A DNA stretch of 64,000 bases from Verrucomicrobiota bacterium (GTDB taxonomy: Bacteria; Verrucomicrobiota; Verrucomicrobiia; Limisphaerales; AAA164-E04): assembly GCA_047947115.1 (NCBI GenBank), contig CP170459.1, forward strand, positions 2,784,001 to 2,848,000. The letters are read 5' to 3'. Below are positions 16,767 to 40,636 of this stretch, one piece after another. Positions within the stretch are counted from its first letter, which is position 1; every line of letters starts with the position of its first letter. Position numbers and translations under genes: made by a program. The notes beneath the pieces were generated by a model, which was given only the letters and a program-made list of their open reading frames with translations, had not been told where the DNA came from and searched no databases.

Positions 16767-17399
16767 ATGAAGCGTTTGATCTGTTTCGCCGTCTCCGATG
16801 AAAAGCGGTTCTTCCAACCTGCTCCCGATGACAAGGTGCTGGTAACCGGTATGGGAGCCAGGGCGGCTGAGGCTGCGCTTAGGAAATCGCTGAAAGACAA
16901 TCGTCCGGAGCTGATTGTTGCGGCAGGTTTTGCCGGTGGGCTGAATCCTCAACTGACTTTGGGGCAAGTGGTGCTGGATGATCGACAAGGCGCTGCGGCA
17001 GCACGCATCAATGCCCGGAAAGATTCCGCACTTATTGTGACAGGAATTATTTTTTCCTCTGCTCGAGTATTGATAACCCCGGAGGAGAAGGGCAAATGCC
17101 GATCAGAAACGCACGCCGATGCAGTGGACATGGAATCAGAAACCATTCGGCGCATCGCCGGCGAGCAGGGCATACCCATGTTCGCTTTGCGCTCCATTTC
17201 GGATACCGTGCATGAGATGTTGCCTCTTGATTTCAATCAGTTCATGACACCCCGGGGAGGGATGCGTTTTGGTCGACTGATTGCCCACCTGATGTTTCAC
17301 CCGGGCAAGATCCCTTCACTGTTACGCTTTCAAAAGCGAGTCAGCATTGCCGCACGCGAGCTGGCTAAAGCCATTGAAATGGTGAATGGTGAATGGTGA
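16767..17399 (+). CDS. Hopanoid-associated phosphorylase/nucleosidase (HpnG-like, MTA/SAH nucleosidase family)
   Basis: TGMG, GFAGGL, AVDMES and RSISD motifs; directly downstream of shc; C-terminal MVNGEW is encoded by the heptamer array. Confidence 0.82.
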   Translation: MKRLICFAVSDEKRFFQPAPDDKVLVTGMGARAAEAALRKSLKDNRPELIVAAGFAGGLNPQLTLGQVVLDDRQGAAAARINARKDSALIVTGIIFSSARVLITPEEKGKCRSETHADAVDMESETIRRIAGEQGIPMFALRSISDTVHEMLPLDFNQFMTPRGGMRFGRLIAHLMFHPGKIPSLLRFQKRVSIAARELAKAIEMVNGEW

Positions 17400-17409
17400 A
17401 TGGTGAATG
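17378..17409 (+). repeat. Heptamer tandem array (AATGGTG)x4, site A left
   Basis: aatggtg x4 plus aatg, overlapping the stop of the hpnG-like gene. Confidence 0.97.
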
Positions 17410-17425
17410 CTCGAAGCGGACGATA

Positions 17426-17653
17426 GGTAGATCGGACCGTCCCCGGTCCGCACCTTGTGGCTTTCCTGTACAAATATGCCATCCAAATGAAACCCTGACG
17501 GGGAGGCATTGCGCAAGCCACATCGGCGGGCTTTGAAGCAACTGGCTTTCGAGAACCACAGGCTTCCCAAAACGGAAGTTGATGGTGAATTGTAAGCCGC
17601 AAGGGGCGCGCCCGGGATTCACGCAGTCGCGGGACAGGCAGGCACGATCTACC
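17426..17653 (+). mobile_element. GTAG-type REPIN/MITE-like element, copy 1
   Basis: Starts GGTAGAT-CGGACCG-TCCC-CGGTCCG and ends ...GGCACGATCTACC; interior highly similar to 31639-31831 and 31846-32051; ~22-nt insertion in the right REP. Confidence 0.8.
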
Positions 17654-17669
17654 CGGACCCATCCCTGAA

Positions 17670-17704
17670 ATCATTCACTATTTTAAATTCGCTATTCACT
17701 ATTC
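17670..17704 (-). repeat. Degenerate heptamer array, site A right
   Basis: Minus strand gaatagt gaatagc gaattta aaatagt gaatgat; contains the TAG stop of the convergent gene. Confidence 0.85.
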
Positions 17705-19398
17705 GAACCACCGCTTCCTTCAGTCAGTTCGATGATTTGACCGGATGGCATGTTTTGGAATGTTTCCGTTTTGCCGCCGGGCCAGTGGACTTCGATTTGA
17801 TTGATGTTCTCATGAGAACCCAGACCAAAGTGAAGCCTGGTTCCGTAGTGACTCTGATAGCCTCGTCCACTGTGGACTTCGTCGACGAAGGTTTGATCGC
17901 CAGCATGTACTTTGACCTTTGCTCCAATTCCAAACTTGTTGGACCGTGTTCCTTTTAAATTGATTTGAACCCAGTGTTGGTTTGTCGAAAGATCGTTTCT
18001 AAGCAGAGTTGGTTTTTGGCGGGTGTTCAGGACGACCACGTCAATATCTCCGTCGTTGTCCAGGTCGTCAAAAGCCGCGCCGCGGCTGCTGAATTTCGGG
18101 TTGAGACCGCTTCCCGCTTCAAGCGTGACATCTCGGAATTTTCCGTTGCCCAGGTTCATGATGACGCGGTTTTGAGCTTCAAATGTTTTACTGTCGTTCC
18201 AGAGATGGATGTTATCCTGCAGGTGACCGCAGGCGATGAAAACGTCCCGAAAACCGTCATGGTTCAAGTCCGGCATGCCCAGTCCCCAGGTCACTTCGTG
18301 ATAGGTTCCTTCTCCTGCGCTGCTTGTGTGCGTGATGTCGGTGAAGAACCCGTCGCCGTCATTGTGGTAATGAGTGGTCCACTGTTGTTCGTAAGATGTC
18401 ATGTAAAAGTCCGGTAAACCGTCGTTGTCCAGGTCCGCGCAATCCACTCCCATGGTTCCGAGGCCGATGCCATTTCGATCGTATGCAAGACCGGTCAGAA
18501 GCCCGACTTCTTTAAAGGATCCTTTGCCATCATTTTGCCAGACAAAGTTGGCCAGGGCATCGTTGCCCACAATGATGTCAGTGTCGCCGTCGTTGTCGTA
18601 ATCGGCGCACACGATCCCCATCCCGGTACCTTTTTTTGATGTAATGCCCGATACTTCACTGATGTCGGTAAAGGTACCGTCTCCGTTGTTTTGAAAGAGA
18701 GTATCGGCCGTTGGTCCATAGATCGCAGGGCCCGTGTAGGCGGGGTGCCCGTTGATATGTCGTTCCTTGTGTTTTTCCAGAGTGAAATCACAGTAATTGG
18801 CAACGAACAAATCAAGGTCACCATCCTGATCGATGTCCAGAAACGAGGCTCCGGCTCCAACCTGGTCTCCATTCGCCACGCCGGCTTTTTGTGTCACATC
18901 GGTAAAGGTACCGTCCCCATTGTTGCGGTAAAGGATGTCGGGGCCAAAGTTGGAGAGAAATATATCCGGAAAACCGTCGTTATCATAATCCCCGATGCAG
19001 ACTCCCAAGTGATAGGCCCGGTCGCTGAGACCTGAATCCGAGGTGATGTCAGTGAATTTCCATTGTCCGTCATTTCGGTAAAGCACGTTCCCTGCCTCGG
19101 AAGCTTTGCGATCCAACCCGGGAAGCGGGGCGCCGTTGAGGAACAGGATGTCGATGAGCCCGTCATTGTTGTAATCAAACGTAGCCAGTCCGGATGCCAC
19201 ACTTTCCACAATGTAGCGACGTTTGCCTTCTCCCCCGTCCGAATGGGTGAATGTGATGCCGGTCACACCGGTGACATCGCTCAGGCGAATGGCCGGCTGA
19301 CTCGATACCGTTTGATTGACAAGACCCCACACGATGCATGTCATCAGAGCGCGTGACAGGGTACTCTGGCGTTTGTTTTTTTGGGGGAGGTAAGTCAT
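17692..19398 (-). CDS. CRTAC1-family protein (FG-GAP/VCBS repeats plus C-terminal ASPIC/UnbV domain)
   Basis: Repeated DYDNDG/DLDNDGD motifs, SSRGAAFDD, GRGYQSH..RLHFGLG, IEVHWPGG; ATG at 19398 overlaps the upstream stop (ATGA). Confidence 0.92.
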   Translation of the reverse strand: MTYLPQKNKRQSTLSRALMTCIVWGLVNQTVSSQPAIRLSDVTGVTGITFTHSDGGEGKRRYIVESVASGLATFDYNNDGLIDILFLNGAPLPGLDRKASEAGNVLYRNDGQWKFTDITSDSGLSDRAYHLGVCIGDYDNDGFPDIFLSNFGPDILYRNNGDGTFTDVTQKAGVANGDQVGAGASFLDIDQDGDLDLFVANYCDFTLEKHKERHINGHPAYTGPAIYGPTADTLFQNNGDGTFTDISEVSGITSKKGTGMGIVCADYDNDGDTDIIVGNDALANFVWQNDGKGSFKEVGLLTGLAYDRNGIGLGTMGVDCADLDNDGLPDFYMTSYEQQWTTHYHNDGDGFFTDITHTSSAGEGTYHEVTWGLGMPDLNHDGFRDVFIACGHLQDNIHLWNDSKTFEAQNRVIMNLGNGKFRDVTLEAGSGLNPKFSSRGAAFDDLDNDGDIDVVVLNTRQKPTLLRNDLSTNQHWVQINLKGTRSNKFGIGAKVKVHAGDQTFVDEVHSGRGYQSHYGTRLHFGLGSHENINQIEVHWPGGKTETFQNMPSGQIIELTEGSGGSNSE

Positions 19399-21098
19399 TC
19401 CAGGTTTCCTTTGCCTTCCGACAGGGTGATGTGTTGGTCGGCTTTTATTGTTTGAAAAGCATCGGTAGTGCCGCTGGTCCATCGAACTTCAATTCGATCA
19501 ACCTTTTCATGGGAACCCAAGCCGAAATGCAATCGCTTTCCAAAATCACTCTGATAGCTTCGGCCACTGTGCACTTCGTCCATTTGAGTCATATCACCGG
19601 TCTTGACGTAAACACGTGCTCCGGTTCCGTCACGGGGTGACTTTGTTCCGATCAGGCTGATCTGGAGCCAATGGTTGTTGGTTTGAGAGTCGTTGCGGAT
19701 CAGTGTGGGTTTGGATCGTGTGTTGAGGACCACCGCGTCGATGTCCCCATCATTGTCCAGATCGTCAAAGGCTGCCCCGCGGCTGCTCATCTTGGGTAAT
19801 AATCCCGTGCCGCTTTGATCTGAAACATTTGTGAATTTGCCGGATCCGGTGTTGTGCAACAGGATGTTCCTGGCGGCCCATTGGGTGTTGGTGTCGAATT
19901 GATCCACGTTGTCGATCAGGTGACCGCAGGCGATGAAAATGTCCTTGTGGAGGTCGTTGTCAAAATCCACCCAGCCGACGCCCCATTTCACATCCGCATA
20001 AGCCCCCATGGCTGCGCCGGTCTGGCGGGCGACGTCTTCGAAATAGGCTCCTTTACGGTTTTCGTAGAGGGTGGGGAGTTGGCGCTGGTAAGGGGTGATG
20101 TAGACGTCGAACCATCCGTCATGATTCCAATCCGCAATTTCCATACCCATGGAACCCTGAACGTTTCCAAAAGCGTCATAAGCCAGGCCCATCAATGCTC
20201 CGGTGTCTTTGAAATGGCCCTTGCCGTCGTTGGTCAGCAGGAAATCCGGACGCAGATCGTTTCCGACGATGATGTCGGTATCCCGATCGTTGTCGATGTC
20301 GACTGCAATGACTCCCATTCCTGCTCCGGGCAGGGAGGCGATGCCGGAGGATTCGCTGATGTCGGTGAACACGCCGTTCCCATCGTTGCGAAACAATTGA
20401 TTCTTAGTGGAAGGGTAGTTCAATGGACCTACGTAGGCGGGAAACCCGTTCATGTGGGTGATGTGGTGATTGTCGAACGTGAAGTCCACGTAATTGGCGA
20501 CAAACAGGTCGAGATCTCCGTCGCCTTCGATGTCCAGAAAACATGCGCCGGCACCGACATGTGATCCTCCGCTGACACCGGCCTTTTCCGTGACGTTGCT
20601 GAAGGTTCCGTTGCCGTTGTTTTGGTAAAGAATGTTTGGCCCGAAATTATTCAGGAAGAGGTCGGGATCTCCATCGTTGTCATAATCCCCGACACACACG
20701 CCCAGGTGGTAGGCGGTATCGTTGAGCCCCGCATGCTTTGTGACGTCAGTGAATTTCCAGTCACCTTCGTTTTGATAGAGCGCATTGTGTGCAGTCTCTT
20801 CTCCGGTTGGCTGCACAGGCAGAGGTGCGCCGTTCAGGAAGAGGATGTCGATCAGTCGATCTCCGTTGAAATCGAACGTGGCAAGTCCGGATGCGACTGT
20901 TTCAACGATGAATCGCTTACCGCTGCTTCCATCCGTGTGCACGAAGTCAATGCCGGACGCCTGTGTGACATCTGTCAACTGAATCGAGTAGAAGTTTTCG
21001 GCGGTGAAAGCCATCAATGGCATCACCATGACCGATATCATGGAGCAGGGGAGAGTCCACTGGCGGTGAACATGTTCGTGAAAGCTCATCCGTTTCAT
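19395..21098 (-). CDS. CRTAC1-family protein (FG-GAP plus ASPIC/UnbV), tandem paralogue of 17692-19398
   Basis: Same motif order as its neighbour: VETVASGLATFD, SSRGAAFDDLDNDGD, RLHFGLG. Confidence 0.92.
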   Translation of the reverse strand: MKRMSFHEHVHRQWTLPCSMISVMVMPLMAFTAENFYSIQLTDVTQASGIDFVHTDGSSGKRFIVETVASGLATFDFNGDRLIDILFLNGAPLPVQPTGEETAHNALYQNEGDWKFTDVTKHAGLNDTAYHLGVCVGDYDNDGDPDLFLNNFGPNILYQNNGNGTFSNVTEKAGVSGGSHVGAGACFLDIEGDGDLDLFVANYVDFTFDNHHITHMNGFPAYVGPLNYPSTKNQLFRNDGNGVFTDISESSGIASLPGAGMGVIAVDIDNDRDTDIIVGNDLRPDFLLTNDGKGHFKDTGALMGLAYDAFGNVQGSMGMEIADWNHDGWFDVYITPYQRQLPTLYENRKGAYFEDVARQTGAAMGAYADVKWGVGWVDFDNDLHKDIFIACGHLIDNVDQFDTNTQWAARNILLHNTGSGKFTNVSDQSGTGLLPKMSSRGAAFDDLDNDGDIDAVVLNTRSKPTLIRNDSQTNNHWLQISLIGTKSPRDGTGARVYVKTGDMTQMDEVHSGRSYQSDFGKRLHFGLGSHEKVDRIEVRWTSGTTDAFQTIKADQHITLSEGKGNLE

Positions 21099-21101
21099 AC
21101 A

Positions 21102-22568: not shown

Positions 22569-23106
22569 ACCGTGTGGATCTTGAAAGGAACGGTAGGATT
22601 GGGCCTTGTAAGTGTCAAGCGGTTCGTCTGCTGGGGCAGATCCGGTTAAGTGGACTGTTGGAATTTGTGTCGTTTTTTGGGTTGTTGAGTTGAGTTGTTA
22701 CCTTGCCACCGGCTCCCGAAAGAACCCCGACACTCGTCATTCACATCTTCGAGACCGGTATCCATACGAGTGAAGACCTCCACAGCAACAATTTCCACTC
22801 TGTGCCGGAGTCATGAGATAATTGCTTTTTTGGTCATATCATTGCCTTTCATCTGCTTTTTTTTGGACTTTTCCTTGTTTTGTGCCTCCTGGTTGTGTAA
22901 TCGTCTCGCAATCCGTCTGTAAGTATGTAGCTCAGATTTTAAGCAATTCCTCCTGGTGGGTAACTTTGTACTGCCGTGTGTGTTATGAAAATTGGTTAAA
23001 GTTGTCCGTTTGGTGGAATGATGTGGGATCTGAGTTGCGTTCCGGTTAACCGGTTCCAAACGTGGAACTTGCAGGGTGGGTGTAGAATCAGTTGAAAAAC
23101 GTTGTT

Positions 23107-26100
23107 ATGTTTAAAAACCTAAAAACCATGTGCATTGCCCTCCTGCTGGGGGCATTCGGTGGCATCGCTCAAGCTCAGCTGAGCGACGTCACTCAGCCAG
23201 GCGACACGATAGTCGCTACATCGGACAACAGTCCGGGATCGGAAGGCGTTACCAACGCCATTGATAACGCAGATACGAAGTACTTGAACTTCGATATCAG
23301 CAACACCGGGTTCACCGTGACTCCTTCTGTTGGGATGACCATCGTGAGCGGCTTAACTCTGACTTCGGCCAACGACGCCGATGATCGTGATCCAGTCGAT
23401 TACTTGTTGGAAGGTTCTTATGACGGTGTCAACTTCGTTGAGATCTCTTCAGGTGATGTGGCGGATTTTCCGACACGTTTCCACAAGAACTACATCTTCT
23501 TCGACAACTCCACGCCATACCTCTCCTACCGTCTGATCTTCCCCAATACGGCTGGTCCCAGCACCTGCTGTATGCAGATCGCGGAAGTGGAATTTCTCGG
23601 CGTTCAAGCTCCTGGAGATGTGACCCAGCCTGGCGACGCCATCGTTGCCACCTCGGACAACAGCCCCGGTTCTGAAGGTGTTACCAACGCGATTGACAAT
23701 GCTGACACGAAGTATCTGAACTTCGACATCAGCAACACCGGATTCACCGTGACTCCTTCCGTTGGGATGACAGTCGTCAATGGTTTGTCTTTGAAATCGG
23801 CCAACGACGCCGACGATCGCGACCCTGTCAACTACACCTTGGAAGGTTCTTATGACGGTGTGAACTTCACAGAAATCTCCTCAGGCGATGTGGCAGATTT
23901 CCCAACTCGTTTCCACACCAACTACATCTTCTTCGATAACTCAACTCCTTATCTGACTTATCGATTGATCTTCCCTGATACCGCCGGTCCCAGCACCTGC
24001 TGTATGCAGATCGCAGAAATTGAGTTGTTCGGTAGCCAGGCTCCCGGAGACGTCACCCAACCTGGTGACACCATCACCGCCACCTCCGACAACAGTCCTG
24101 GATCTGAAGGCGTAACCAATGCGATCGACAATGCGGATACCAAGTATCTGAACTTTGATATCGCCAATACCGGTTTCACCGTGTTCCCATCGGTTGGTTT
24201 GACCATTGTGAATGGTATTTCATTGAAATCCGCCAATGATGCTGATGATCGTGACCCGGTCAACTACGTCCTGGAAGGAACTTATGACGGAACCAACTTC
24301 ACAGAAATCTCCTCAGGCGATGTGGCAGATTTCCCAACTCGTTTCCACACCAACTACATCTTCTTCGACAACTCGATTGCCTACTCCGGTTATCGACTGA
24401 TCTTCCCTGACACAGCCGGTCCCAGCACCTGCTGTATGCAGATTGCCGAAGTGGAACTGCTCGGTGTTCAGTTGCCAGGTGACGTGACCCAGCCGGGTGA
24501 CACCATTGTGGCTACTTCGGACAACAGCCCTGGTTCCGAAGGTGTGACCAATGCGATCGACAACGCCGATACCAAGTACCTGAACTTCGACATCAGCAAT
24601 ACCGGATTCACTGTGACTCCTGGTGTTGGACTGACCGAAATCATCGGTATGTCCTTGAAGTCTGCCAATGATGCGGATGACCGTGACCCGATCAACTACA
24701 CCTTGGAAGGTTCTTATGACGGTGTGAACTTCACAGAAATCTCCTCAGGCGATGTGGCAGATTTCCCAACTCGTTTCCACACCAACTACATCTTCTTCGA
24801 TAACTCAACTCCTTATCTGACTTATCGATTGATCTTCCCTGATACCGCCGGTCCCAGCACCTGCTGTATGCAGATCGCAGAAGTTGAACTGTTCCCTCGT
24901 CCAGGTGGAAGCTGTGACGACTTCAGCAGCGTTAGCGATGGTCTGATCACTCAGCAGCCTTCCGATACTCCCGTGTTGGCCGGTGCAACTGCATCGATTA
25001 GTGTTGTTCCTTCCGGTCCTTGGGATGTTCAGTGGCTGAAGCAAGGTCCTGGCGATTCTTCTTTCGTCTTGGTGGACGGAGCTACCAGCGCAACTCTGGA
25101 AGTCAAAAATGTGACCGCCGACATGGACGGCACGATCTACCAGGCCCGCGTTTCCAACTCACAGTGCGACGCTCAATACAGTCAGCAAGTGACCTTGAGC
25201 ATCTTCACTCCCTCGGAAACCACCAGTGTTGGTTTCTCCTTCCGTGGTGGTGGCGCCAATGGTGCTCCCACAATCATGATGGCTGAGGATATTGCAGGAT
25301 TCCATCCTCAGGCTTACTGGAATAATGTAGATGGTAACACAGGTGACACTGGAGCTGGTGTCTGGAATGAAGAATCCGGAGCTTCAGATGTGCTGGCTGT
25401 TGACAGTAATAACGCTGAAACCGAAGTGGGTATCGAGTTCACCGCAAGCGGAACTTGGGGAGCTGGAACTCGCACAGCGAGTGCTACAGGTCGCATGCTG
25501 AATGGTATGCTCTCCGTCGATCCAGCGTCTCTGGATGATGCTCCAAACGAAATCGTTGTCTACAACTTGCCTGCAGGTCAGCACTCCCTCATCCTCTATA
25601 CAGTTCAAGTTCCTCTTGAATTCTACGAATTGGATGTTGAAGTCGAAGACGCCAACGGTACACAACGTCGCTACCTCCGTCCTCAAAACTCGGATGAATA
25701 CAATCCTTCTCCGAATTACGTGCTGATCACAGCAGCAGAAGAATCCGCCCGTTCTGTTGGTAACATGGTGGTCTTCAGCGGAGTGACTCCAAGCAATGGT
25801 GAAGTGACCATTCGTTTGGCTGCGCCGAGCGGTCAAGGCCAGGGACCTGGTCTCAACGGTATGCAGATCCTTCTTAACAAGGAATTCGTGCCACCTCCCG
25901 TCATCAATGCACAGCCTGTCTCCACAAACGGTGTGGATGGCAGCCCGCTGGAACTGACCGTGGCTGCAACGGGTGCCGATTCCATTCAATGGTTCAAGAA
26001 TGGCCAGCCAATCGCTGGAGCAACAGGCACTACCCTTCGTCTTGGAAGATTGGGTGCCAGTGACGCAGCCGCTTATTCGGTGACCGTTTCAAATGACGGT

Positions 26101-27090
26101 GGTAGCGTGACCAGTAAAGCTGCTGTTGTGGATGTGCTGCCTAACAAGGACATCACCAACGGTTTGGTTTCTTACTTCCCATTTGATGGAAACGCCGACA
26201 ACGCCGCCGGCGCTGCAAATGGTGAAACCAAGAACGGAGCCGGTTTCGGTTCCGGTCAGATTGGTCAAGCCCTTGAGCTGGACGGTTCCGATGACTGGGT
26301 GTTTGTTCCCAATTATCCGAAGCCTTCCAAAGCCATGACCGTTTCGACCTGGGTGTTGCCTGATGGCATCGATTGGGGTCCAGTTGTTCGTAACTGGGTG
26401 TCAGAACTGGGTGACGGCCGATTTGGTCAGTTCATCTTGGATGCTCCATATCCTTTGGATGCCTTTTCACCCAGTCTTCGTGCTGTGATCGGTGTTGGTC
26501 CGAACGAGCCGACCGCTTCATTGGATATCGCTGATTCCGAGCGCGGATCCTGGCACCACATGGCAATGACCGCCAATGGCCGTACCCTCACCCTTTACTG
26601 GGATGGTCAAGCCGTTGCCAGCCTGGACTACCTCAACAACATCAATAATCCTCCATTCCCTTGGCTGGCCATCGGTGCCGATGTTCAACTGCCTCTGGAT
26701 GGAGATGGAAATGCCGATGTAGCCGGTGAACCCGAGCTCCGTGAAGACACCTTCCCTTGGGCGGGTAGCATTGATGATCTGGCGATCTGGAACCGTAGCT
26801 TGAGTGGCGCAGAAATCTTCGCCATTTTCCAAGCTGGCGGCAACGGAACTGCCGTTTCGGATGTTGAAGGCGTGCTGGACGACAGCGAAGGTGATGTTGT
26901 TGTTGAGCCTGTTGATGCCATGATCACGGCTGTGACTGTTTCCGAAGGCAACCTCGTCATTGAATGGCAGGGTAGCGAGCTCCAGGAAGCTGACACCGTG
27001 ACAGGTCCTTACACTCCTATCAGTGGTGCGACTCCTCCTTCGACTTCCATCGTGATCGAAGGTGGCAATAAGTTCATCATCGCTCGATAA
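23107..27090 (+). CDS. Large secreted acidic protein: 4x144-aa discoidin/F5-8-like repeats, Ig-like domains, LamG domain, short C-terminal domain
   Basis: Signal peptide ending AQAQ; four near-identical DVTQPGD...STCCMQIAE units; ITQQP/INAQP...QWFKNG Ig motifs; LVSYFPFDG, WHHMAMT and GSIDDLAIWNRSLS LamG motifs. Confidence 0.85.
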   Translation: MFKNLKTMCIALLLGAFGGIAQAQLSDVTQPGDTIVATSDNSPGSEGVTNAIDNADTKYLNFDISNTGFTVTPSVGMTIVSGLTLTSANDADDRDPVDYLLEGSYDGVNFVEISSGDVADFPTRFHKNYIFFDNSTPYLSYRLIFPNTAGPSTCCMQIAEVEFLGVQAPGDVTQPGDAIVATSDNSPGSEGVTNAIDNADTKYLNFDISNTGFTVTPSVGMTVVNGLSLKSANDADDRDPVNYTLEGSYDGVNFTEISSGDVADFPTRFHTNYIFFDNSTPYLTYRLIFPDTAGPSTCCMQIAEIELFGSQAPGDVTQPGDTITATSDNSPGSEGVTNAIDNADTKYLNFDIANTGFTVFPSVGLTIVNGISLKSANDADDRDPVNYVLEGTYDGTNFTEISSGDVADFPTRFHTNYIFFDNSIAYSGYRLIFPDTAGPSTCCMQIAEVELLGVQLPGDVTQPGDTIVATSDNSPGSEGVTNAIDNADTKYLNFDISNTGFTVTPGVGLTEIIGMSLKSANDADDRDPINYTLEGSYDGVNFTEISSGDVADFPTRFHTNYIFFDNSTPYLTYRLIFPDTAGPSTCCMQIAEVELFPRPGGSCDDFSSVSDGLITQQPSDTPVLAGATASISVVPSGPWDVQWLKQGPGDSSFVLVDGATSATLEVKNVTADMDGTIYQARVSNSQCDAQYSQQVTLSIFTPSETTSVGFSFRGGGANGAPTIMMAEDIAGFHPQAYWNNVDGNTGDTGAGVWNEESGASDVLAVDSNNAETEVGIEFTASGTWGAGTRTASATGRMLNGMLSVDPASLDDAPNEIVVYNLPAGQHSLILYTVQVPLEFYELDVEVEDANGTQRRYLRPQNSDEYNPSPNYVLITAAEESARSVGNMVVFSGVTPSNGEVTIRLAAPSGQGQGPGLNGMQILLNKEFVPPPVINAQPVSTNGVDGSPLELTVAATGADSIQWFKNGQPIAGATGTTLRLGRLGASDAAAYSVTVSNDGGSVTSKAAVVDVLPNKDITNGLVSYFPFDGNADNAAGAANGETKNGAGFGSGQIGQALELDGSDDWVFVPNYPKPSKAMTVSTWVLPDGIDWGPVVRNWVSELGDGRFGQFILDAPYPLDAFSPSLRAVIGVGPNEPTASLDIADSERGSWHHMAMTANGRTLTLYWDGQAVASLDYLNNINNPPFPWLAIGADVQLPLDGDGNADVAGEPELREDTFPWAGSIDDLAIWNRSLSGAEIFAIFQAGGNGTAVSDVEGVLDDSEGDVVVEPVDAMITAVTVSEGNLVIEWQGSELQEADTVTGPYTPISGATPPSTSIVIEGGNKFIIAR
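23185..24894 (+). repeat. Four intragenic tandem repeats with a 432-bp period
   Basis: Units start at 23185, 23617, 24049 and 24481. Confidence 0.97.
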
Positions 27091-27111
27091 GGTTTCCTAT
27101 TACTCATATCG

Positions 27112-27148
27112 CAAACGGGGGCGAGTCTTGACTCGTCCCCGTTTTTTT
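27112..27148 (+). terminator. Rho-independent terminator
   Basis: AAACGGGGGCGAGTC-TT-GACTCGTCCCCGTTTTTTT hairpin with U-tract after the large gene. Confidence 0.9.
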
Positions 27149-27170
27149 GTTTTCTGGTAAGGCAAATCTT

Positions 27171-27923: not shown

Positions 27924-27959
27924 ACCCATCCTATAGTCCAGACTTCTTTCAATTGCACC

Positions 27960-30900
27960 ATGAAACGCCACTTGCTCTCCAACTTAGGCAATTTCCAGTT
28001 AAACGCTTTGTTCTCTGCGTTTGCTCTTGTCGTAATATTGCCTGTCAAAGCGCAAACGCTTGGTGTTTCCAGCAAGAAGCTGGAAGTCCCGACCGGTGGG
28101 GAAACAGGTTTTGAACGCGTCGATCCGGAACCAAGCGGCATAACGTTTATTAATACACTCGGAGAATTGACCGGCGCTTCCAATCGGGTCTTGTTCAATG
28201 GAGCGGGTGTGGCAGTGGGGGATGTGGATGGGGATTCGATGCCCGATATTTTTTTCTGTGGTCTGGATTCTGAAAATCATCTTTACCGGAATCTGGGGAA
28301 CTGGAAGTTTCAACGCATGCGCATCCCATCGACGGTGGCGCTTCCCGGACACCCAACTCGAGGTGCCGTGTTTGCCGACATTAATGCGGATGGATCCCCT
28401 GATCTTTTATTGACCACGGTCGGTGGAGGGTGCCGTGTGTTTTTGAATCATGGGGAGGGGAACTTTAAACCAGTTGCTGGCAATGCCGGCATCCGGCCCG
28501 AAGGGGGGGCGAGTTCCATTGCTCTGGCCGATGTGGATGGCAATGGTTCATTGGATTTATACGTGGCAAACAACCGTACTGATGACATTCGTGATTACGG
28601 GCGTGTCAACATGCGTCGGGTCAATGGCAAGATCGTTCCACCCGATGATTTGAAGGATCGCCTGCTGGTGCATAAAGGGCAGCTCCACGAATACGGTGAA
28701 CCCGATTACTTATATCTGAACGACGGCAAGGGATCATTCACTGAAGCCTCCTGGAAGGATGGAAGGTTTCGCATGGAAGGCAAGCCGTTGACGGACATTC
28801 CTCGTGATTGGGGATTGAGTGTGACATTCAGGGATCTGAATGGTGATCTCGCTCCCGACCTTTACGTTTGCAACGACTACTGGACTCCGGATCGGATTTG
28901 GATCAATGATGGCAAGGGAGGTTTTGATGAACTGGGAGCTCAAAAACTTTCGGTGACTTCCTCCAGTTCGATGGGGGTGGATGTTGCGGATGTCAATCTG
29001 GACGGGCATCTGGATCTGTTTGTTGTGGACATGCTCAGCCGGCATCATCGCTTGCGCAAACGGCAACAGCCTGCCTTCAATCCACTCTTTGAAGAACCAT
29101 CTTTCAGCGGAGTCAGGACACAGGTCATGCACAATACTTTGTTGATGCAACAAGCGGACGGTTCCTTCATTGAAAACGCTTTTGCAGCCGGACTTCCGGC
29201 ATCGGACTGGGCGTGGTGTCCTGTTTTCTTGGATGTGGATCTGGATGGAGATGCGGATTTGTTGGTTTCTTCGGGGTATCCCCACGACGTGCAGGATTTG
29301 GATGCCGTTCAGGAGATTGCCAAACGACAGCATTCCTGGGAGCGGTTCAAAGATCCGGTTGCTTTAAAGAAAGCCTTTGCCAAGGAGTTGATGGAGAATT
29401 ACCGGCTCTATCCCAAACTAGATATGCCATTGATTGCATTTGAGAATCAGGGGAATGGCACTTTCAGAGAAGCGACCCAAACTTGGGGAACCCATCATCC
29501 GGGAGTGCATCAGGGTTTTGCCACGGGAGATCTGGATGGCGATGGTGATCAGGATCTGGTGGTCAATAACCTCAATGCGCCTGTTTTACTCTACAGGAAT
29601 CAAACTGCAGCACCTCGTGTGAAAGTTCATCTGACTGGTGCCGGGTCCAATACCCAGGCAATCGGTGCGCGGGTGGTGCTTCAATCAGCCACCATGCCTG
29701 ATCAACAACAGGAGATCATCGCTGGTGGACGTTATGTCTCGGGAGGGGACGTTGCACTGACATTCGCGGTTCCCGCCAGGGGCAGCCATTGGCAAATGCA
29801 GGTTCATTGGCGAGACGGAAGCCTCACGACCCTTCCGGGGATTCAGGTCAATCATGCTTACGATATCCGTCAGTCGGAAGTCGTCACCCAGAAACCCATC
29901 GATGACACCGATCCGGTCGAACCCATGTTCAAGTACGTGGGGGATCCGGGTAGCGAAATCTTTGTTCCCGGCATGTTGCCTGATCCGATGATGCGTCAAC
30001 CGTTGCTTCCGCTCCAGGCAAAGCCGCGAGGAGGCGCTTCCGCCTTTTCGGATATTGACCAGGATGGGGAACCTGAATGGATGACTGGGAGCGAGCGGGG
30101 TGTTCCTCTTAAACAAATGGAATGGACAGCCGACATGGTTTGGAAGGAGATGGGGCAATCGGCTCCTTCACCCGCGACCGTCACTGGATTGTTGGAAATT
30201 CAAAAGGGAAAGTGGTTGGTGAGTTATGATGCAAAACCGGCTGCAGGAGAGGGGACGCTTCATGTTCGCGACGGAATTCAAAAGGGTTTTGCGTCCGTGG
30301 GCCAAAGTCCCGACGCCACAACCACACTCGCCATGGGGCCATTGAATGGCCGTGGAGCATTATCGGTTTTTGCGGGTGGTGGGGCAAAGTCCGGCCATTA
30401 CCCTCAGGCGCATGCTTCCATGCTCTACGACGTTTCCGGGAGCACCTTGCAACGAGACACAAAGAACGGTGTCTTGTTGGAATCCCTGGGATTGGTGCAT
30501 GATGCGGTGTGGAGCGATTTGAATCAGGATGGCTATCCTGAATTGATCGTGGCATCAGCCTGGAGTCCGATACGAGTGTTTGAAAATCGTCGGGGAAGTT
30601 TGTTTGATGTTACGGAAGCCTGGGGGTTCGGTGAACAACGAGGTTATTGGCTTTCGGTGACGACTGTTGATTTGGACGGGGATGGAATGCTGGATGTGGT
30701 TGCTGGAAATCTTGGGCATAATTCATCTTGGACGGCCACTCAGAAACAGCCTTTCAAATTGATCTATGGAACGTTTTCAAATCCAAACGTCACCGACCTA
30801 ATCGAAACGGTTTATCATTCCGATGGCACACTGGCTCCACTTCGATTGATTGGCGAGATTGGGAATTTCCTTCCCTTTTTCTATCAACAGATCCGTGACC

Positions 30901-31628
30901 ACCTGGCCTACAGCGAAGCTTCCCTGGACACGCTCTTGGGCAACCGCAAGGGACTGTCAAAAGTGGTTCAAGCAAACACGTTTTCCAGCATGGCTTTTAT
31001 CAATCGTGGTGACAAAGGGTTTGAACCCGTCGAACTTCCCGAGACAATGCAGTGGGGGGCTGTGACCGAATTATCGGTTGGAGACATCAATGGTGATGGC
31101 GCGCCCGACATAGCCTACGTGCAGAATCAACTTTGGACCCGACCTGGATTCGGTACTTTGTTTGATCCTCGAGCGGGAGTACTGCTTGGGCAGGGGACGG
31201 GCGGTCTGGTTCGGGCAAATCCAGTTTCTTTGGGTGTGGACATAATGGCTTCCGTGGATGGTCTGCGTATTGCCGATGTTACTTTGGATGGTCGTCACGA
31301 TTTAATGGTTAAGCGTCGGGAAGGTGCGTGGGAACTGCATGCCAATCATCGAGGAAAGCCAGGGCTGAAAGTGATCGTGAACGGTCCTGCGCACAACCCC
31401 GGAGCACTGGGTGCGCAAATTCGAACCTTCGACGCATCCGGGAACATGAGCGCCTGTCATGAGATGCGCGAAGACACCAGCATGCCATTCAAACAGGGAC
31501 GTCAGTTGCTAATTCACTCGACCCATCAACCCAGCGGCGTTTTGATCCGCTGGCCCGGGGGTGAGGAGCGGCGCTATGATCTGGCTCCGGGCGCTTTGGA
31601 ATTTAAAATAGTGAATGGTGAATGGTGA
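27960..31628 (+). CDS. Large VCBS/FG-GAP repeat protein with an internal ASPIC/UnbV domain
   Basis: Many DxDGDG repeats, NTQAIGARV..GGRYVS..WRDG ASPIC-like segment, second propeller; C-terminal EFKIVNGEW is array-encoded. Confidence 0.88.
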   Translation: MKRHLLSNLGNFQLNALFSAFALVVILPVKAQTLGVSSKKLEVPTGGETGFERVDPEPSGITFINTLGELTGASNRVLFNGAGVAVGDVDGDSMPDIFFCGLDSENHLYRNLGNWKFQRMRIPSTVALPGHPTRGAVFADINADGSPDLLLTTVGGGCRVFLNHGEGNFKPVAGNAGIRPEGGASSIALADVDGNGSLDLYVANNRTDDIRDYGRVNMRRVNGKIVPPDDLKDRLLVHKGQLHEYGEPDYLYLNDGKGSFTEASWKDGRFRMEGKPLTDIPRDWGLSVTFRDLNGDLAPDLYVCNDYWTPDRIWINDGKGGFDELGAQKLSVTSSSSMGVDVADVNLDGHLDLFVVDMLSRHHRLRKRQQPAFNPLFEEPSFSGVRTQVMHNTLLMQQADGSFIENAFAAGLPASDWAWCPVFLDVDLDGDADLLVSSGYPHDVQDLDAVQEIAKRQHSWERFKDPVALKKAFAKELMENYRLYPKLDMPLIAFENQGNGTFREATQTWGTHHPGVHQGFATGDLDGDGDQDLVVNNLNAPVLLYRNQTAAPRVKVHLTGAGSNTQAIGARVVLQSATMPDQQQEIIAGGRYVSGGDVALTFAVPARGSHWQMQVHWRDGSLTTLPGIQVNHAYDIRQSEVVTQKPIDDTDPVEPMFKYVGDPGSEIFVPGMLPDPMMRQPLLPLQAKPRGGASAFSDIDQDGEPEWMTGSERGVPLKQMEWTADMVWKEMGQSAPSPATVTGLLEIQKGKWLVSYDAKPAAGEGTLHVRDGIQKGFASVGQSPDATTTLAMGPLNGRGALSVFAGGGAKSGHYPQAHASMLYDVSGSTLQRDTKNGVLLESLGLVHDAVWSDLNQDGYPELIVASAWSPIRVFENRRGSLFDVTEAWGFGEQRGYWLSVTTVDLDGDGMLDVVAGNLGHNSSWTATQKQPFKLIYGTFSNPNVTDLIETVYHSDGTLAPLRLIGEIGNFLPFFYQQIRDHLAYSEASLDTLLGNRKGLSKVVQANTFSSMAFINRGDKGFEPVELPETMQWGAVTELSVGDINGDGAPDIAYVQNQLWTRPGFGTLFDPRAGVLLGQGTGGLVRANPVSLGVDIMASVDGLRIADVTLDGRHDLMVKRREGAWELHANHRGKPGLKVIVNGPAHNPGALGAQIRTFDASGNMSACHEMREDTSMPFKQGRQLLIHSTHQPSGVLIRWPGGEERRYDLAPGALEFKIVNGEW

Positions 31629-31640
31629 ATGGTGAATTGT
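31599..31640 (+). repeat. Heptamer tandem array, site B left
   Basis: gaattta aaatagt gaatggt gaatggt gaatggt gaattgt; includes the stop codon of 27960-31628. Confidence 0.95.
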
Positions 31641-31831
31641 CCCCGGTCCGCACCTTGTGGCTTTCTTGCTCAAAAATGCCATCCAAAGGAAACCCTGATG
31701 TGGAGTTATCGCGCAAGCCATATCGACGGGCTTTGAAGCAACTGGCTTTCGAGAACCACAGGCTTCCCAAAACGGAAGTTGATGGTGAATTGTAAGCTAC
31801 AAGGGACGCGCCGGGGACGGCACGAACTACC
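31639..31831 (+). mobile_element. REPIN/MITE-like element, copy 2 (left REP truncated at the heptamer array)
   Basis: Begins GTCCCCGGTCCG without the GGTAG head; ends GCGCCGGGGACGGCACGAACTACC. Confidence 0.8.
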
Positions 31832-31845
31832 CAGAGAGTACTGCA

Positions 31846-32051
31846 GGTAGAGCTGACCGTCCCGGTCCGCACCTTGTGGCTTTCCTGTTCAAATATGCCA
31901 TCCAAAGGAAACCCTGATGTGGAGTTCTCGCGCAAGCCATATCGACGTGCTTCGAAATTGGCAGGTTATCGAGAATCGTAGGCTTCCCAAAACGGAAGTT
32001 GATTGCGAATTGGATGCCACATGGGACGCACCGGGGACGGCACGTTCTACC
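31846..32051 (+). mobile_element. REPIN/MITE-like element, copy 3 (206 bp, both ends present)
   Basis: GGTAGAGCTGACCGTCCCGGTCCG ... GCACCGGGGACGGCACGTTCTACC inverted ends. Confidence 0.8.
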
Positions 32052-32057
32052 TGCACC

Positions 32058-32072
32058 CACCATTCACCATTT
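32058..32072 (-). repeat. Heptamer array, site B right (2 units)
   Basis: Minus strand aaatggt gaatggt g, overlapping the TAA of the CAP gene. Confidence 0.75.
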
Positions 32073-33048
32073 AAAACGGGTTTTTCTCCGGGTCGGTTTC
32101 TCGGATCAGGTCGATTTTGAAGTATTTGGCAGGGATGCGATCGACAGGGAAGATCATGGGGGTTCCCATGTCAAAAATGGATTCCTGATTCCAGAACGGG
32201 AAATCAATCCAGACAGTGCTGTAAACCGCCCATTTCAAACTGGGATGCAAATTCCCATTCAATGGGTAGTCCAGTTGGAGCGAATGTGTTTCAGGAAGAT
32301 ACCGGGTCTGTAGTTTGGGCGCTATTGATTTGCTCAAGGGGTCGGTATTCAAGGCATACTCCAGTAGATTGCCGACTCCATCTGCATCGGGATCTCCGTT
32401 TTCCATTTGCGGGAGGGTCAATGTTGTAAACAACCACTCACTGACAGGACTCAAGGCGGCATCCTCGTCAGGCGGAGCGCTGAGGAAGGAGAAATAGTGA
32501 CTGCTCCAACCGTGTGGCCCTTGCGGATCGAAAGCATAACCCACCGCCACATAGGTTTGTTTCGCGAAAAAATCTTGCGTCCCCAAAACATGGGTGCGAT
32601 GGCCGGGAGATTCCATCCAGGCGTTGAATACAATATCCGCTGCCGCTTGACCGGATAATCCGTTCTGGTGTCGGGCTCCGATCGATTCGATGTTGTTTGC
32701 CGAACGTGCCTTGCTGTAGTTGTGCCCATATCCCGCCATGGAAATGGTGAAATTCATGCCAAATCCATCCGGATCCTGATGACTGAAATACTCACGCGCA
32801 GCCATGTCTTCGGCTTTTTTGCGAGCCGCAAAAAGCAATACCTCATTCCGCACAAACTCCGAGCGCAATTGCTCCTCATGCGCCTCGATCAAATCCAGCA
32901 TATAGGTTTCGGCTGGAAGCGGGTCCAGAGCATAAGCCATTGAAGCGACCAGAAACACTCCCGAGAAAATACCCCAATGAGCAAGACTCATTACGGGTGG
33001 AAGCTTCCGACAACGGACGAACGGAAACAGTGCATTGCAGGTTTTCAT
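32071..33048 (-). CDS. CAP (SCP-like) domain secreted protein with a C-terminal DxDGxxN..EY motif
   Basis: KAEDMAAREYFSHQDPDG, WMESPGHR and DPDADGVGNLLEYALNTDP motifs; AAGGAG SD before the ATG at 33048. Confidence 0.88.
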   Translation of the reverse strand: MKTCNALFPFVRCRKLPPVMSLAHWGIFSGVFLVASMAYALDPLPAETYMLDLIEAHEEQLRSEFVRNEVLLFAARKKAEDMAAREYFSHQDPDGFGMNFTISMAGYGHNYSKARSANNIESIGARHQNGLSGQAAADIVFNAWMESPGHRTHVLGTQDFFAKQTYVAVGYAFDPQGPHGWSSHYFSFLSAPPDEDAALSPVSEWLFTTLTLPQMENGDPDADGVGNLLEYALNTDPLSKSIAPKLQTRYLPETHSLQLDYPLNGNLHPSLKWAVYSTVWIDFPFWNQESIFDMGTPMIFPVDRIPAKYFKIDLIRETDPEKNPF

Positions 33049-33302
33049 GGAAATCTCCTTTGCTATTCGACTCACAGACTCTCCCACTTTCCGTAAATGA
33101 TTCAAACACATTTTCAGATGGAATCATCTGAGGAAAGGAGAAAGCACTCAGTATTCAATAAATCATCCTTGTTTGATCTTTTCAATGTATGGGGTTGGAG
33201 ATAATATCCGTGTGTCGCTGAGGTGGTTAATTATTTTGAAATTGTGCGAGAGCCCGTCAGACTTGCCGCTGCTAGGTTTTAAGAATGGGATATGGGGTCA
33301 AC

Positions 33303-34517: not shown

Positions 34518-34523
34518 TCTCAT

Positions 34524-35579: not shown

Positions 35580-35767
35580 CGACGTTCCCGAAATACGACC
35601 GCTACAAGGATTCCGGTGTCGAATGGCTCGGGGAGATTCGCAGAGGAAAGTCGATTATTAGAATAGTGTTGGACAAGCAAATTGACTGCAATATACGTAT
35701 TTTTACCGAATTCAACGACATTTTGTCACGATTGATGAAATTTCAGGAGTTGAAGGAATCGGCGTAG
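35576..35767 (+). pseudogene. hsdS: Truncated type I R-M specificity subunit (first ~21 codons only, then unrelated sequence)
   Basis: FPKYDRYKDSGVEWLGEI is the typical HsdS N-terminus; similarity stops at ~35638 and AT-rich sequence follows. Confidence 0.82.
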
Positions 35768-35822
35768 AACAGTTAAAAATGGTGAGAAATGCAAAATAAA
35801 TTGAGGGACACTTTGTTTTTTT

Positions 35823-37354: not shown

Positions 37355-37399
37355 GTTTTTTTCATCATCTCGTTGCCCTTCTTTCAATTTTATATTTCC

Positions 37400-40240
37400 A
37401 TGGTAAATGTGTTGACGACTCCTTTACGAACATTGGGACACCTTTTGATGTTTCCTGTTGTGCTGGTGATATGCGGTCTGTTGGTTGGAATGGGGTCGGC
37501 ATTGGCACATCCTGCTCAGGTGCATATCAAGATTTTGGTGGTGGTTTGTCAGTATGCGGATACGGAAACTCCTGAGCTGAAGAGTCGGCAGTGGGCGGAT
37601 GAGTTGAATCTTGGGATCAATACGCTTTATGCGACCGCCACACATCAACAGGCTCCTGAGTTTGAGTTTATTCCAGTTCCCGGGGTGTTGGAGTTGGACG
37701 TTGATTATTCGCCGAGTGTGTCGATGGCAGATGATGATTCGACTTTGGTTGATGATCCGGGGGTAATCGATCGGGAGGGAGTTTTGGCATTGGAATACGC
37801 ACGGAAAATGGTGCCGGAATATTTCGCTCAACCTGTATATCTGCTGGCTGTCATCAACCGGCACAAGGAAGGACGTGCGCGTGGTTTATTTGAATTTCCG
37901 CTGGTCTCAGAGGTCCAGGATGGTGTGAAAGTAAACGCCGCGATTTCGGTGATCTCTGATCCTTTTGCGGACAGGCGGTTGGAGGTTGATTCGGTGGTGC
38001 CCCAGTCTGCTGCAGTGGATACGGATGGTGATGGCCTGAGTGATGAACAAGAGCTGGGCTTGGGAACTTTGCCGGACCGGGCGGACAGTGATGGAGATGG
38101 TTATTCGGATTGGGTGGAGGTCACGTTGAGAATCAGTGATCCGTTGAATTCGATCTCAAAAGTGAGTCTTCCTGACAAGAGTATCTCTTCCGTGGCTCAT
38201 TTGGTGGGCCATCAGATCGGTCTTCCCGGGTTGCATCAGGACGAACGTTATGTGCGCGAATCATCCTACGGCTATTGGGGCCTCATGGCGCAGGACAATT
38301 CTCAGGGATTGAGTGGGTTTACGCGGTTACATGCACAGTGGTATGACACCAAGTTCGGGGAACTGGTCATTGATATAGAGCCTGGAGGTTGGGAGGAACC
38401 TCTCTTTTATCTGGTGGAACCTTCTTTTCAATTCATGGGTGCATTTTTGCCTCCGGGCGTGTTTGAACTTGTGCGTATTCGCAGGCCTTCACTCCCCGAT
38501 GTGTTGCTGGAGGCGCGCCCCAAATTCAGTGTGGATGCCTCCAGATTTGCGAATGGCTTTTCCGGTTTGGGGGATTTTTCGGGACTTCCTTCCAGTTATC
38601 AACCGGGTGTGTTGGTTTCAGAGATCGATCCGGCTTATGAAGGGCAAGTCTTTCCCTATCCCGGACAGTATGGTGTGCCTGTTGCGCGGGTGTTGCCGCA
38701 TGAGGAAGGTGATGTTTCAAGTCCTGGAAATGAGGATGTCCCAATCGCACTACAGGATGCCACCATTCAGGAACAACAGGTATTTCAGGATGCCTATGGT
38801 CTGGAGATTCAAGTCGGTAAGTTTGATCGCTTTGAGGGGAGTTATGAAATCTCGATCAAGTCTGAATCATCTCCTGCTTTTGCGGATTTGACCATTACCG
38901 GTGCCTGGCTCGATAGCGCCGCCAATGGTTACGGTTCCTTTTTGTTTGGTCGGGATGAACTTTCAGGCGATCCTCGCCTGGGGTGAGACCCGGTTCATTG
39001 GGTGCAGCGGCCTGAGTTTCGTTGGACCCATTCGCTTCCCGATGTCCGGCTTCATGCTGGGGCTTTGGAACATCGCGCAACCTTTCGCATTCAAAATGTC
39101 GGTACGGCTGATGCGTTTCATATCGAAGGCACGGTCTATGTCTTGCCTGCGTCCACCTTGCCGGTGGGGGATAGCATGTTCGATCCGGAAGTGCTAAACG
39201 CTTTGGCTTTATCTCGGGAAAAGGTGTTTCTTGAGCGTTTGAAAGCGGAAGAGCATGCTGAGGTTTCTGTGTCGTTTTTTCCATCCGGGCCGGTTCAGGC
39301 CATTTTGATACTTGATTCGGTTTCGAACGAACTGGTCACTCACAATAATCGTCATCGGTCCGTTTTCTGGGCCGAATATGCTGCGTTGGACACCTTTTAT
39401 CCAACGATTGAACAAACGGTTCAATTTTACAATGGGACAAGCTTTCATCACCATCTGGTGGCTCAGGTATCAGCTTTGCCCACCGGGTGGGTGGAGAGAT
39501 TAACCGTTCCGGATTCAGACGATTTGAAATGGTCGACACCACTCCAGCCGGGAGGTTCGGAATCGTTTCAATTAAATATTCAACCACCACCTCCAGCAGA
39601 GACACAACTGGGAGTCATCGAGCGGATTATCATGGATACCTGGATGGACTATGGCGATGGAGCTGTGCCGTCGGGTGATCTTTCTTTGAAGGTGGTGTTA
39701 TCTCTGCCAACATACATTTCGCTGGAAATGCAACAAGAGGAAGATCAGACACTGTTGACGGGTGTGCTGACTGTTGGAAAAGAGGGAAACCCTGTCTTAA
39801 AGGATGGAGTCATCGCGGTTGAAATCACCGGCTCGAATGGAACTCAGCAAACCATCTTTGCCACGACATCTGCTGATGGGCGGTATTCTGTTCGAGCGGT
39901 TACTGAAAGCGACACAGGCTATGCCGCCGTTGCCAACTTCATTGGCAATGATACCTACGCTCCATCTCATTCATCTTTGATTCAATGGGGAGCAGCCGTC
40001 CCTCCTGAGCAAGGTCAAATTCATATCAAACGCATTCTGTATGAAAATGGAATAGTTCACCTGGGTATCTCCAACACATTCCCAACCCTCATCCATGTGC
40101 AACTCCTGGTCTCAGACAATCTGCTTCAATGGCGGGAGTTTGAACGCATGGAAATCCCGCCAGGGGATTCCCAATGGACCGTTGACACGGCTACTCTTGA
40201 TCAAACGGCCTTCTTTCGAATGGTGAATGGTGAATGGTGA
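37400..40240 (+). pseudogene. Secreted M6/immune-inhibitor-A-like protein with DxDGDG repeats, interrupted by one in-frame TGA at 38984-38986
   Basis: ORFs 37343-38986 and 39002-40240 are in the same frame; AHLVGHQIGLPGL and YWGLMA resemble M6 motifs; DTDGDGLSD/DSDGDGYSD repeats; signal peptide. Confidence 0.65.
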
Positions 40241-40242
40241 AT
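40218..40242 (+). repeat. Heptamer tandem array (GAATGGT)x3, site C left
   Basis: gaatggt x3 plus gaat; encodes MVNGEW-stop and abuts the stop of the four-helix-bundle gene. Confidence 0.95.
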
Positions 40243-40592
40243 TATTTGCGGGTTTTTTTGATGATGGTGGTGAGGATGGCAATAAGCTGATTGGATTCAT
40301 CTATGAGTTGAGATAGTTTTGATTTGGGAATTACGTTTGTGGTTGAAATGAGGCGAAGCCAGTAGTGGGTTTCGCGGGCTTCTTTACATGCTATAGAAAG
40401 TTTGGATGTAAAATCTGCCTGACTCTGGCTTGCTTGCGCTTCTTCTACGTTGGCTCCGATAGAGGTTCCAGAGCGAAGAACTTGGCCCGCCAGTATGCGC
40501 GATACTCCAGGTTTCTCATCCAATACCTGACAAAGGTTAATAATTCGTACAGAAAAATCAAAAGTCCGACCGACGATATCTATCCCATTCAC
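40242..40592 (-). CDS. Four helix bundle protein (TIGR02436 / 23S rRNA IVS protein-like)
   Basis: RTFDFSVRII, QVLRSGTSIGANVEEA..SQSQADF..KLSIACKEARETHYWLRL and ESNQLIAIL motifs; GGAGG SD before the GTG at 40592. Confidence 0.95.
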   Translation of the reverse strand: MNGIDIVGRTFDFSVRIINLCQVLDEKPGVSRILAGQVLRSGTSIGANVEEAQASQSQADFTSKLSIACKEARETHYWLRLISTTNVIPKSKLSQLIDESNQLIAILTTIIKKTRK

Positions 40593-40601
40593 CCCATACC
40601 T

Positions 40602-40636
40602 CCAATTCACTATTCACCATTCTCCATTCTCCATTT
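40602..40636 (-). repeat. Heptamer array, site C right
   Basis: Minus strand aaatgga gaatgga gaatggt gaatagt gaattgg, from the TAA of the prepilin gene to the SD of the four-helix-bundle gene. Confidence 0.92.

Follow-up and report, generated by a model that had tools for sequence, protein, structure and literature searches.

Introduction

The closest described counterpart of the element reported here is the intervening sequence (IVS) of the Coxiella burnetii 23S rRNA, in which the gene for S23p, a member of the four-helix-bundle family PF05635/TIGR02436, lies between complementary stem-forming ends and is preceded by tandem GACAGAT heptamers whose number varies between strains; S23p itself is a homopentamer (PMC4990558). 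Here we describe a comparable arrangement in a window of 64,000 nucleotides, positions 2784001-2848000 of the 6.08-Mb single-contig genome (G000) of a Verrucomicrobiota bacterium. Three junctions between convergent genes in this window, designated A, B and C, each carry a heptamer array, hereafter called an arm, on the plus strand at the left and another on the minus strand at the right. Junction C is an intact arm-gene-arm cassette of one TIGR02436 clade, and the arrays of A and B are gene-less arm copies. The Coxiella IVS and C have in common a gene of the same family, complementary ends that close a stem, and tandem heptamers. They differ in that C sits at the end of a protein gene and not in rRNA (there is no Rfam match in the window), in the heptamer core, and in the dozens of gene-less arms spread through the present genome.

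Positional rules for heptamer arrays, and heptamers beside an S23p gene, are already in print. The GGGAATC/GGGGAYT arrays of Xanthomonas and Nostoc are dispersed, contain about four units, occur as inverted pairs and vary between sister species; their purine-rich strand lies within 50 bases after a stop codon or, in antisense, ahead of a start codon (Rehm et al. 2015, PMC4692102). That paper does not mention four-helix proteins and proposes no mechanism. The TAACTGA repeats of Beggiatoaceae, cyanobacteria and Bacteroidetes hold stops in all three frames, overlap gene ends and have a patchy phylogeny (MacGregor 2015, PMC4679880), whose searched text mentions neither four-helix-bundle proteins, S23 nor intervening sequences. 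The Avd pentameric barrel of diversity-generating retroelements is S23-like and its RNA is contacted by all five protomers (10.1101/2023.10.23.563531), but the C locus has neither template/variable repeats nor a reverse transcriptase. Nor do the arms show the matched terminal inverted repeats and target-site duplication of miniature or other terminal-inverted-repeat transposons. In the literature covered, which did not extend to the cyanobacterial STRR/SDR repeat papers and supplements, we found no paper on such a cassette outside rRNA and none naming TIGR02436. An initial annotation of the window had proposed an undescribed element family, and this stands for the cassette as a whole but not for the repeat layout, which is published for other heptamers. 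New with respect to print are the link between protein clade and heptamer core, the five-core mode, and the turnover of single arms beside a separately moving cargo that resembles repetitive extragenic palindromes (REP).

The excess of heptamer repeats in many bacterial genomes has no accepted cause, and TIGR02436 proteins are widespread, with solved pentameric structures and no function. A clade-specific core with a modal count of five invites a direct binding assay that might answer both questions. In addition, the arms replace the C-terminal residues of host proteins and flag places at which further small repeats collect.

Results

A polar family of heptamer arms at gene ends

A strict pattern retrieved 54 arms from the genome, against 0 from the reversed and 0 from the complemented genome, and none of them lies deep inside a gene (genes were predicted with a custom hexamer-based caller, not taken from a standard annotation). 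Period-7 arrays numbered 32, compared with 0, 6, 4 and 2 for periods 5, 8, 10 and 11. The typical arm is about 31 bases long with a GAA core every 7 bases and a modal layout of four units plus AAT. Five cores are the mode here (28/54), in G001 (60/80), a sister species about 82% identical in genes that shares the arm family, and in the arms on the two sides of 80 genes of the C clade (28 and 29). The arrays had been described as GAATGGT-type; the heptamer arrays are real, but their units are mixed (AATRGTG plus AATT-type) and not pure GAATGGT, and two stereotyped mixed-unit orders recur at unlinked sites.

The tie to stop codons proposed in the initial annotation was borne out by the genome scan. 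Thirty-seven of the 54 arms begin between -29 and +34 of a same-strand stop, compared with 6.8% for random intergenic positions; in 21 the stop lies within the arm, and in 3 the polarity is reversed. The same polarity after stops was found for arms that do not overlap a gene (16 vs 3). In the main units each frame of the purine-rich strand contains a stop, and the opposite strand has none. The positional rule, the unit number and the existence of inverted pairs (8 here) are thus common to these arms and to the Xanthomonas-type arrays, with the difference that our arms carry at most GG and are mostly single; since their units are devoid of G-tracts, no quadruplex is expected from them. The TAACTGA repeats are alike in three-frame stops, overlap with gene ends and patchiness, but lie mostly upstream of start codons, unlike the arms described here.

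Surroundings of the arms were counted on a loose set of 65, obtained by a unit-mixture scan (null at that threshold 8 and 13 hits; six rows removed by eye) and used for T-run, terminator and REP-side counts, the strict set serving for the headline counts. A T-run precedes 20 of the 65 arms vs 42 of 1385 controls, and a terminator-like hairpin 7 vs 3 of 1385. Within 50 bases after 31 of the 54 strict arms there is a GTAG-type or insertion sequence (IS)-end-like module, the control for GTAG being 5%. Seven arms have the IS-end-like module, some 25 bases long, behind them (e.g. G000:C1:296218, 1959411, 3331906, 4504403 and 5891289), and at G000:C1:882976, 2036780, 2544711 and 5887663 a T-run joins the arm to a REP that is cut in its loop.

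A link between protein clade and heptamer core

The product of the C gene matched TIGR02436 (95.1 bits, cut-off 24) and PF05635 (73.6 bits, cut-off 33.8) over the full model, and its closest solved relative by sequence match is PDB 2RLD, which has five chains (E 8e-24). This agrees with the earlier proposal that C is the gene-bearing form. The genome holds two four-helix-bundle genes and two heptamer flavours. The second flavour (TTAG/CTAA; 17 arrays by the strict pattern) flanks the second gene in a cassette at G000:C1:3302478-3302985, has three-frame stops on both strands and follows stop codons in both orientations; further arrays lie at 3306761, 3537741, 4310130, 4443164 and 5334070, and this flavour includes long gene-less hairpins.

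The loci analysed were that of the window, those of 79 of the 80 closest homologues of its C protein fetched from named genomes (60-77% identity), and those of 32 of the 37 fetched homologues of the second protein. The 80 closest homologues come from Verrucomicrobiota, Proteobacteria, Nitrospirota, Planctomycetota, Acidobacteriota, Chloroflexota, Bacillota and others. At 75 of the 80 C-clade loci at least three GAA cores with 7-base spacing were present on both sides of the gene, the upstream array purine-rich and the downstream one complementary to it. None of the 32 second-protein homologues has such GAA cores; theirs are mostly of TAG/CAG/AAG type. In a tree of 86 proteins, containing every third C-clade locus after removal of duplicates, 26 of 28 C-clade members were GAA-type, and two GAA-type genes (L042, L045) fell in another clade.

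Of 58 cassettes, 46 have their 5' arm at the end of the upstream gene, and the downstream gene is co-directional in 45 and convergent in only 7, antisense frames that stop in arms being discounted. Convergent gene ends, which the initial annotation had taken as part of the architecture, are therefore not defining, and 5 of the 8 convergent junctions of the window itself have no arm.

The exact array was found in 24 of 401 genomes of the phylum. A TIGR02436 gene was present in all 23 of the other array-bearing genomes vs 39 of 57 family-matched negatives (p=0.001). Most arrays of these other genomes are gene-less, since a four-helix-bundle gene lies within 1.5 kb at only 1 of 30 loci. Six other congeners (75-94% complete) showed neither the array pattern nor a TIGR02436 gene.

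Arms come and go singly

The paired arrays had been interpreted as terminal inverted repeats of a single unit. This was not supported: 38 of the 54 arms are single and 16 form 8 pairs (C included), in which partners resemble each other no more than shuffled ones do (0.630 vs 0.628, p=0.46). Target duplication was seen neither at A, B, C and L103, a one-armed insert described below, nor in related cassettes (7/61 vs 10/61 in the control), and no transposase lies beside any arm examined, in accordance with the initial annotation on both points. Inward-facing pairs are nevertheless enriched. Of 678 convergent junctions, both arms occur at 5 and one arm at 23, against 0.4 doubles expected (12-fold, p=2e-5), which favours some coupling of paired arms; at the 36 such junctions that hold a REP the doubles (2 vs 1.0 expected) were not significant, with low power. 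Outward-facing pairs were absent. Junctions A and B each fold as a single hairpin (z -3.7 and -7.2), the arms of C pair in its fold (z -2.4) with an arm duplex of -34 kcal/mol, and arm-to-arm duplexes range from -18 to -39 kcal/mol. Terminator-like sites (GC-rich stem plus U-tract) between 16500 and 33500 numbered 21 vs 19.0 +/- 4.4 in shuffles and none was formed by an arm, so that the suggested role as intrinsic terminator was not supported for A and B.

Presence and absence were studied by looking up 80 arms of G001 at the orthologous sites of G000, the reverse direction covering A, B and C. An arm was present at 29 sites, a single unit at 10 and no arm at 27; 14 were not comparable. Polymorphism in relatives, anticipated in the initial annotation, thus exists for single arms; at A, B and C no site devoid of both arms was found in G001 or in strain contigs. 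Both arms of A are kept in G001, with two cargo units instead of one; C keeps both arms and its gene, and B has both arms, on two contig ends. At L124 G001 has two arms vs one in this genome, and both L124 and L070 show one arm of a pair that is present in G001 and absent here. At L103 (G001:C13) a clean 186-base one-armed insert lies right after a terminator T-tract, with no duplication. This insert is a mosaic of an arm, half a REP and a piece which resembles, by eye, the downstream arm of a GxxExxY gene, and that gene (L166, G000:C1:3797729-3798073) has inverted arms of its own. Conversely, about 1.2 kb at G000:C1:3083423-3084704 is absent from the corresponding G001 locus (L112, G001:C42), where the arm joins the upstream gene directly to a REP.

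Sixteen of the 27 arm-less sites have a flank that aligns well; there the host sequence is similar to the start of the arm (3.6 of 7 bases vs 1.8), with AA at 9/16 vs 10.6% and a T-rich run at 8/16 vs 12.2%. The next 70 bases are alike at only 16 of 28 shared arms. Among sequencing runs, A is shorter in X8 and X15 and B is two units longer in X2. No contig skipping A, B or C was found in four runs each, which is weak evidence as contigs break at repeats; contig joints between A and B were rejected as repeat artefacts.

The C gene is an identity valley, 68-73% vs 81-97% in its flanks when compared with G001. X15 and X16 contigs carry a same-length, diverged gene core between near-identical flanks, and X19 equals the window. 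Arms and sites thus persist while the cargo turns over independently. Three alleles of the C gene (window/X19, X15/X16 and G001) with conserved flanks can be distinguished at window positions 40304-40518, a sign of either diversifying selection or exchange of the cargo.

The cargo of A and B is a separate repeat family

A leading GTAG is a hallmark of REP sequences. A weight-matrix search of the genome assigned the cargo of A and B to a GTAG-led palindromic repeat family of 129 copies, 125 of them intergenic. This cargo is non-coding, without NCBIfam, Pfam or Rfam match, and BLAST gave no match to a 189-base repeat family. Its units form hairpins as inverted doublets of extragenic palindromes, as described for REPINs (Bertels and Rainey 2011, PMC3116915), but most copies of the family are singlets or direct repeats, and of the 5 PF01797 matches, which mark REP-associated tyrosine transposases (RAYTs), none lies within 3 kb of this REP, though the RAYT may have diverged or been lost. 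No dedicated reverse transcriptase or RAYT was found beside the arms, and the only reverse transcriptase found in the genome is that of a group II intron. An arm is lacking at 72 of 90 REP loci, so that cargo and arms belong to separate families. Where they meet, the REP lies on the inner side of the arm (inward 21, outward 2 of the 65 loose arms), always 3' of the purine-rich strand.

A RAYT-like gene at G000:C1:2360727-2361950 lies between clusters of a different REP family and is likely a REPtron unrelated to the cargo of A and B. In the G001 counterpart of junction B (L016 2552-2616, G001:C154) the inner side of the right arm is joined to sequence that by eye looks like a group II intron 3' end; this joint sits at the base of a REP-like hairpin and is cut by the contig end, and Rfam gives no score.

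Organization of junctions A, B and C

Arrays were present at all three junctions (Table 1), and the window holds no other multi-unit array of this type, as the initial annotation had noticed; single heptamer units occur at 5694, 17581 and 31781. All six gene ends touch an array, as it had also reported: the stops of the three plus-strand genes (17399, 31628, 40240) and of the right gene of A (17692) lie inside an arm, and the right genes of B and C end at an arm edge (32071, 40635). Its account of the cargo was equally accurate, with the addition that the first unit of B is truncated. The C gene has the same orientation as its right-hand neighbour. At A, the HpnG-like protein ends in an arm-encoded MVNGEW; as 13 arm-less orthologues carry unrelated tails, mostly of similar length, the arm has overwritten the tail of this protein.

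Table 1. Coordinates of arms and cargo at the three junctions (window numbering).
Feature	Position	Strand	Description
A left arm	17378..17408	+	four AATGGTG units + AAT (five cores); provides stop of HpnG-like phosphorylase gene 16767-17399
A cargo	17426..17653		single REP-like hairpin unit, GTAG/CTAC ends, lone internal heptamer 17581-17591
A right arm	17673..17703	-	mixed units, five cores; holds stop of FG-GAP/ASPIC gene ending 17692
B left arm	31600..31637	+	provides stop of FG-GAP gene 27960-31628
B cargo unit 1	31638..31831		REP-like, 5'-truncated, without leading GTAG
B cargo unit 2	31846..32051		REP-like doublet, inverted GTAG ends
B right arm	32058..32071	-	only two units; abuts stop of CAP-domain gene 32071-33111; kept in G001
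C left arm (cassette 3' arm)	40219..40242	+	provides stop of gene 39002-40240
C four-helix-bundle gene	40242..40592	-	TIGR02436/PF05635, 116 aa, inferred GTG start behind GGAGG
C right arm (cassette 5' arm)	40601..40635	-	directly after stop of pilin-type gene ending 40635

Discussion

The explanation that we favour, and to which we give an even chance, is that arms are polar modules of the cassette, probably bound by the pentamer and probably copied one by one into T-rich gene ends through conversion primed by homology, where three-frame stops would make their landing harmless. The usual five GAA cores likely mark a putative binding site of the five-subunit protein, and the five cores would be the footprint of the five subunits on single-stranded RNA or DNA. 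An existing arm would serve as the source of a new one, through gene conversion or template switching that begins where the host resembles a unit, that is, at a T-rich run plus AA, as found at stop codons and terminator T-tracts. As every frame of the purine-rich strand contains a stop, copies landing in last codons would be tolerated, hence their concentration at gene ends. REP-like hairpins, IS-end-like pieces and other repeats would then accumulate separately on the inner side of the arm, and two facing arms could close an RNA stem like that of the rRNA intervening sequence.

Several points weigh against this explanation. One-arm copying alone does not predict the enrichment of pairs. The correspondence between clade and core is not one-to-one, given L042 and L045, and it need not mean binding, because gene and arms are inherited together. 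Four cores (18-19/80) are nearly as common as five in gene-bearing cassettes, and TTAG-type arrays far exceed five units. A C-clade protein at 55% identity or more occurs in only 3 of the 23 array-bearing genomes, and the genomes behind the co-occurrence are kin, mostly incomplete assemblies. By eye, about 6 of the 16 'empty' sites resemble decayed arms, so that loss may explain some of the microhomology signal, and gain and loss are unpolarised at most sites. Neither binding nor mobility was observed. A bolder version, which we regard as clearly less likely than not, is that four-helix-bundle pentamers are sequence-specific in reading 7-base-phased triplets, one per subunit and in a clade-specific code, and guide an enzyme of the host or of a group II intron, acting in trans, so that five-unit arms are written at gene ends; this would be a transposase-free selfish system and the source of the bacterial heptamer-repeat excess.

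The arrays might instead be the terminal inverted repeats of a two-armed mobile element, C being the gene-bearing form, A and B derivatives by internal replacement, and single arms decay products. Such an element would account for the pair enrichment and the lack of outward-facing pairs, for the constant side of the cargo, for the presence of both arms at 75 of 80 gene-bearing loci in unrelated contexts, and for the folding of A and B each as one hairpin. We nevertheless consider it unlikely: most arms stand alone, the likeness of partners is at chance level, target duplication and transposase were not found, and the sites of A, B and C are common to G001, while at L124 and L070 one arm of a pair comes without the other.

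It is rather improbable that the arms are host-beneficial RNA elements, selected because they define mRNA ends or stability in the form of stems at the 3' end or of sites for processing or protein binding. Their strict polarity after stops, even outside genes, and the arm-to-arm duplexes would suit such a function; RNase III cuts the Coxiella IVS stem at the first heptamer (PMC4990558), and RNA-library contigs cover C, which indicates presence only. However, most arms have no pairing partner, several come after an existing terminator, terminator-like sites near A and B are about as frequent as in shuffles, the distribution is patchy, turnover is fast, and host C-termini are overwritten. Local polymerase slippage, suggested for heptamers in general as cited in PMC4692102 and PMC4679880, would need neither donor nor protein: arrays would have grown in place from chance heptamers, and selection would have left those at gene ends. 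Differences in unit number between strains at A and B, and the unit-like seeds at empty sites, are in its favour. But slippage gives homogeneous arrays of any unit, whereas the same mixed orders and the 31-base length recur at unlinked sites in two species, in only two main flavours, each fitting a resident gene clade, with array and gene co-occurring in 23/23 genomes. Slippage was already disfavoured on these grounds and has little chance of being the explanation.

Other features of the genome

Matches to the genome of this species are present in estuary, marsh and seawater metagenomes. Elsewhere in G000 a 40-copy repeat resembles a CRISPR array. Within the window, the gene at 23092-27090 encodes 1332 aa and contains four 432-base coding repeats (window 23185-24891), which are covered by deep RNA-library contigs in run X15.

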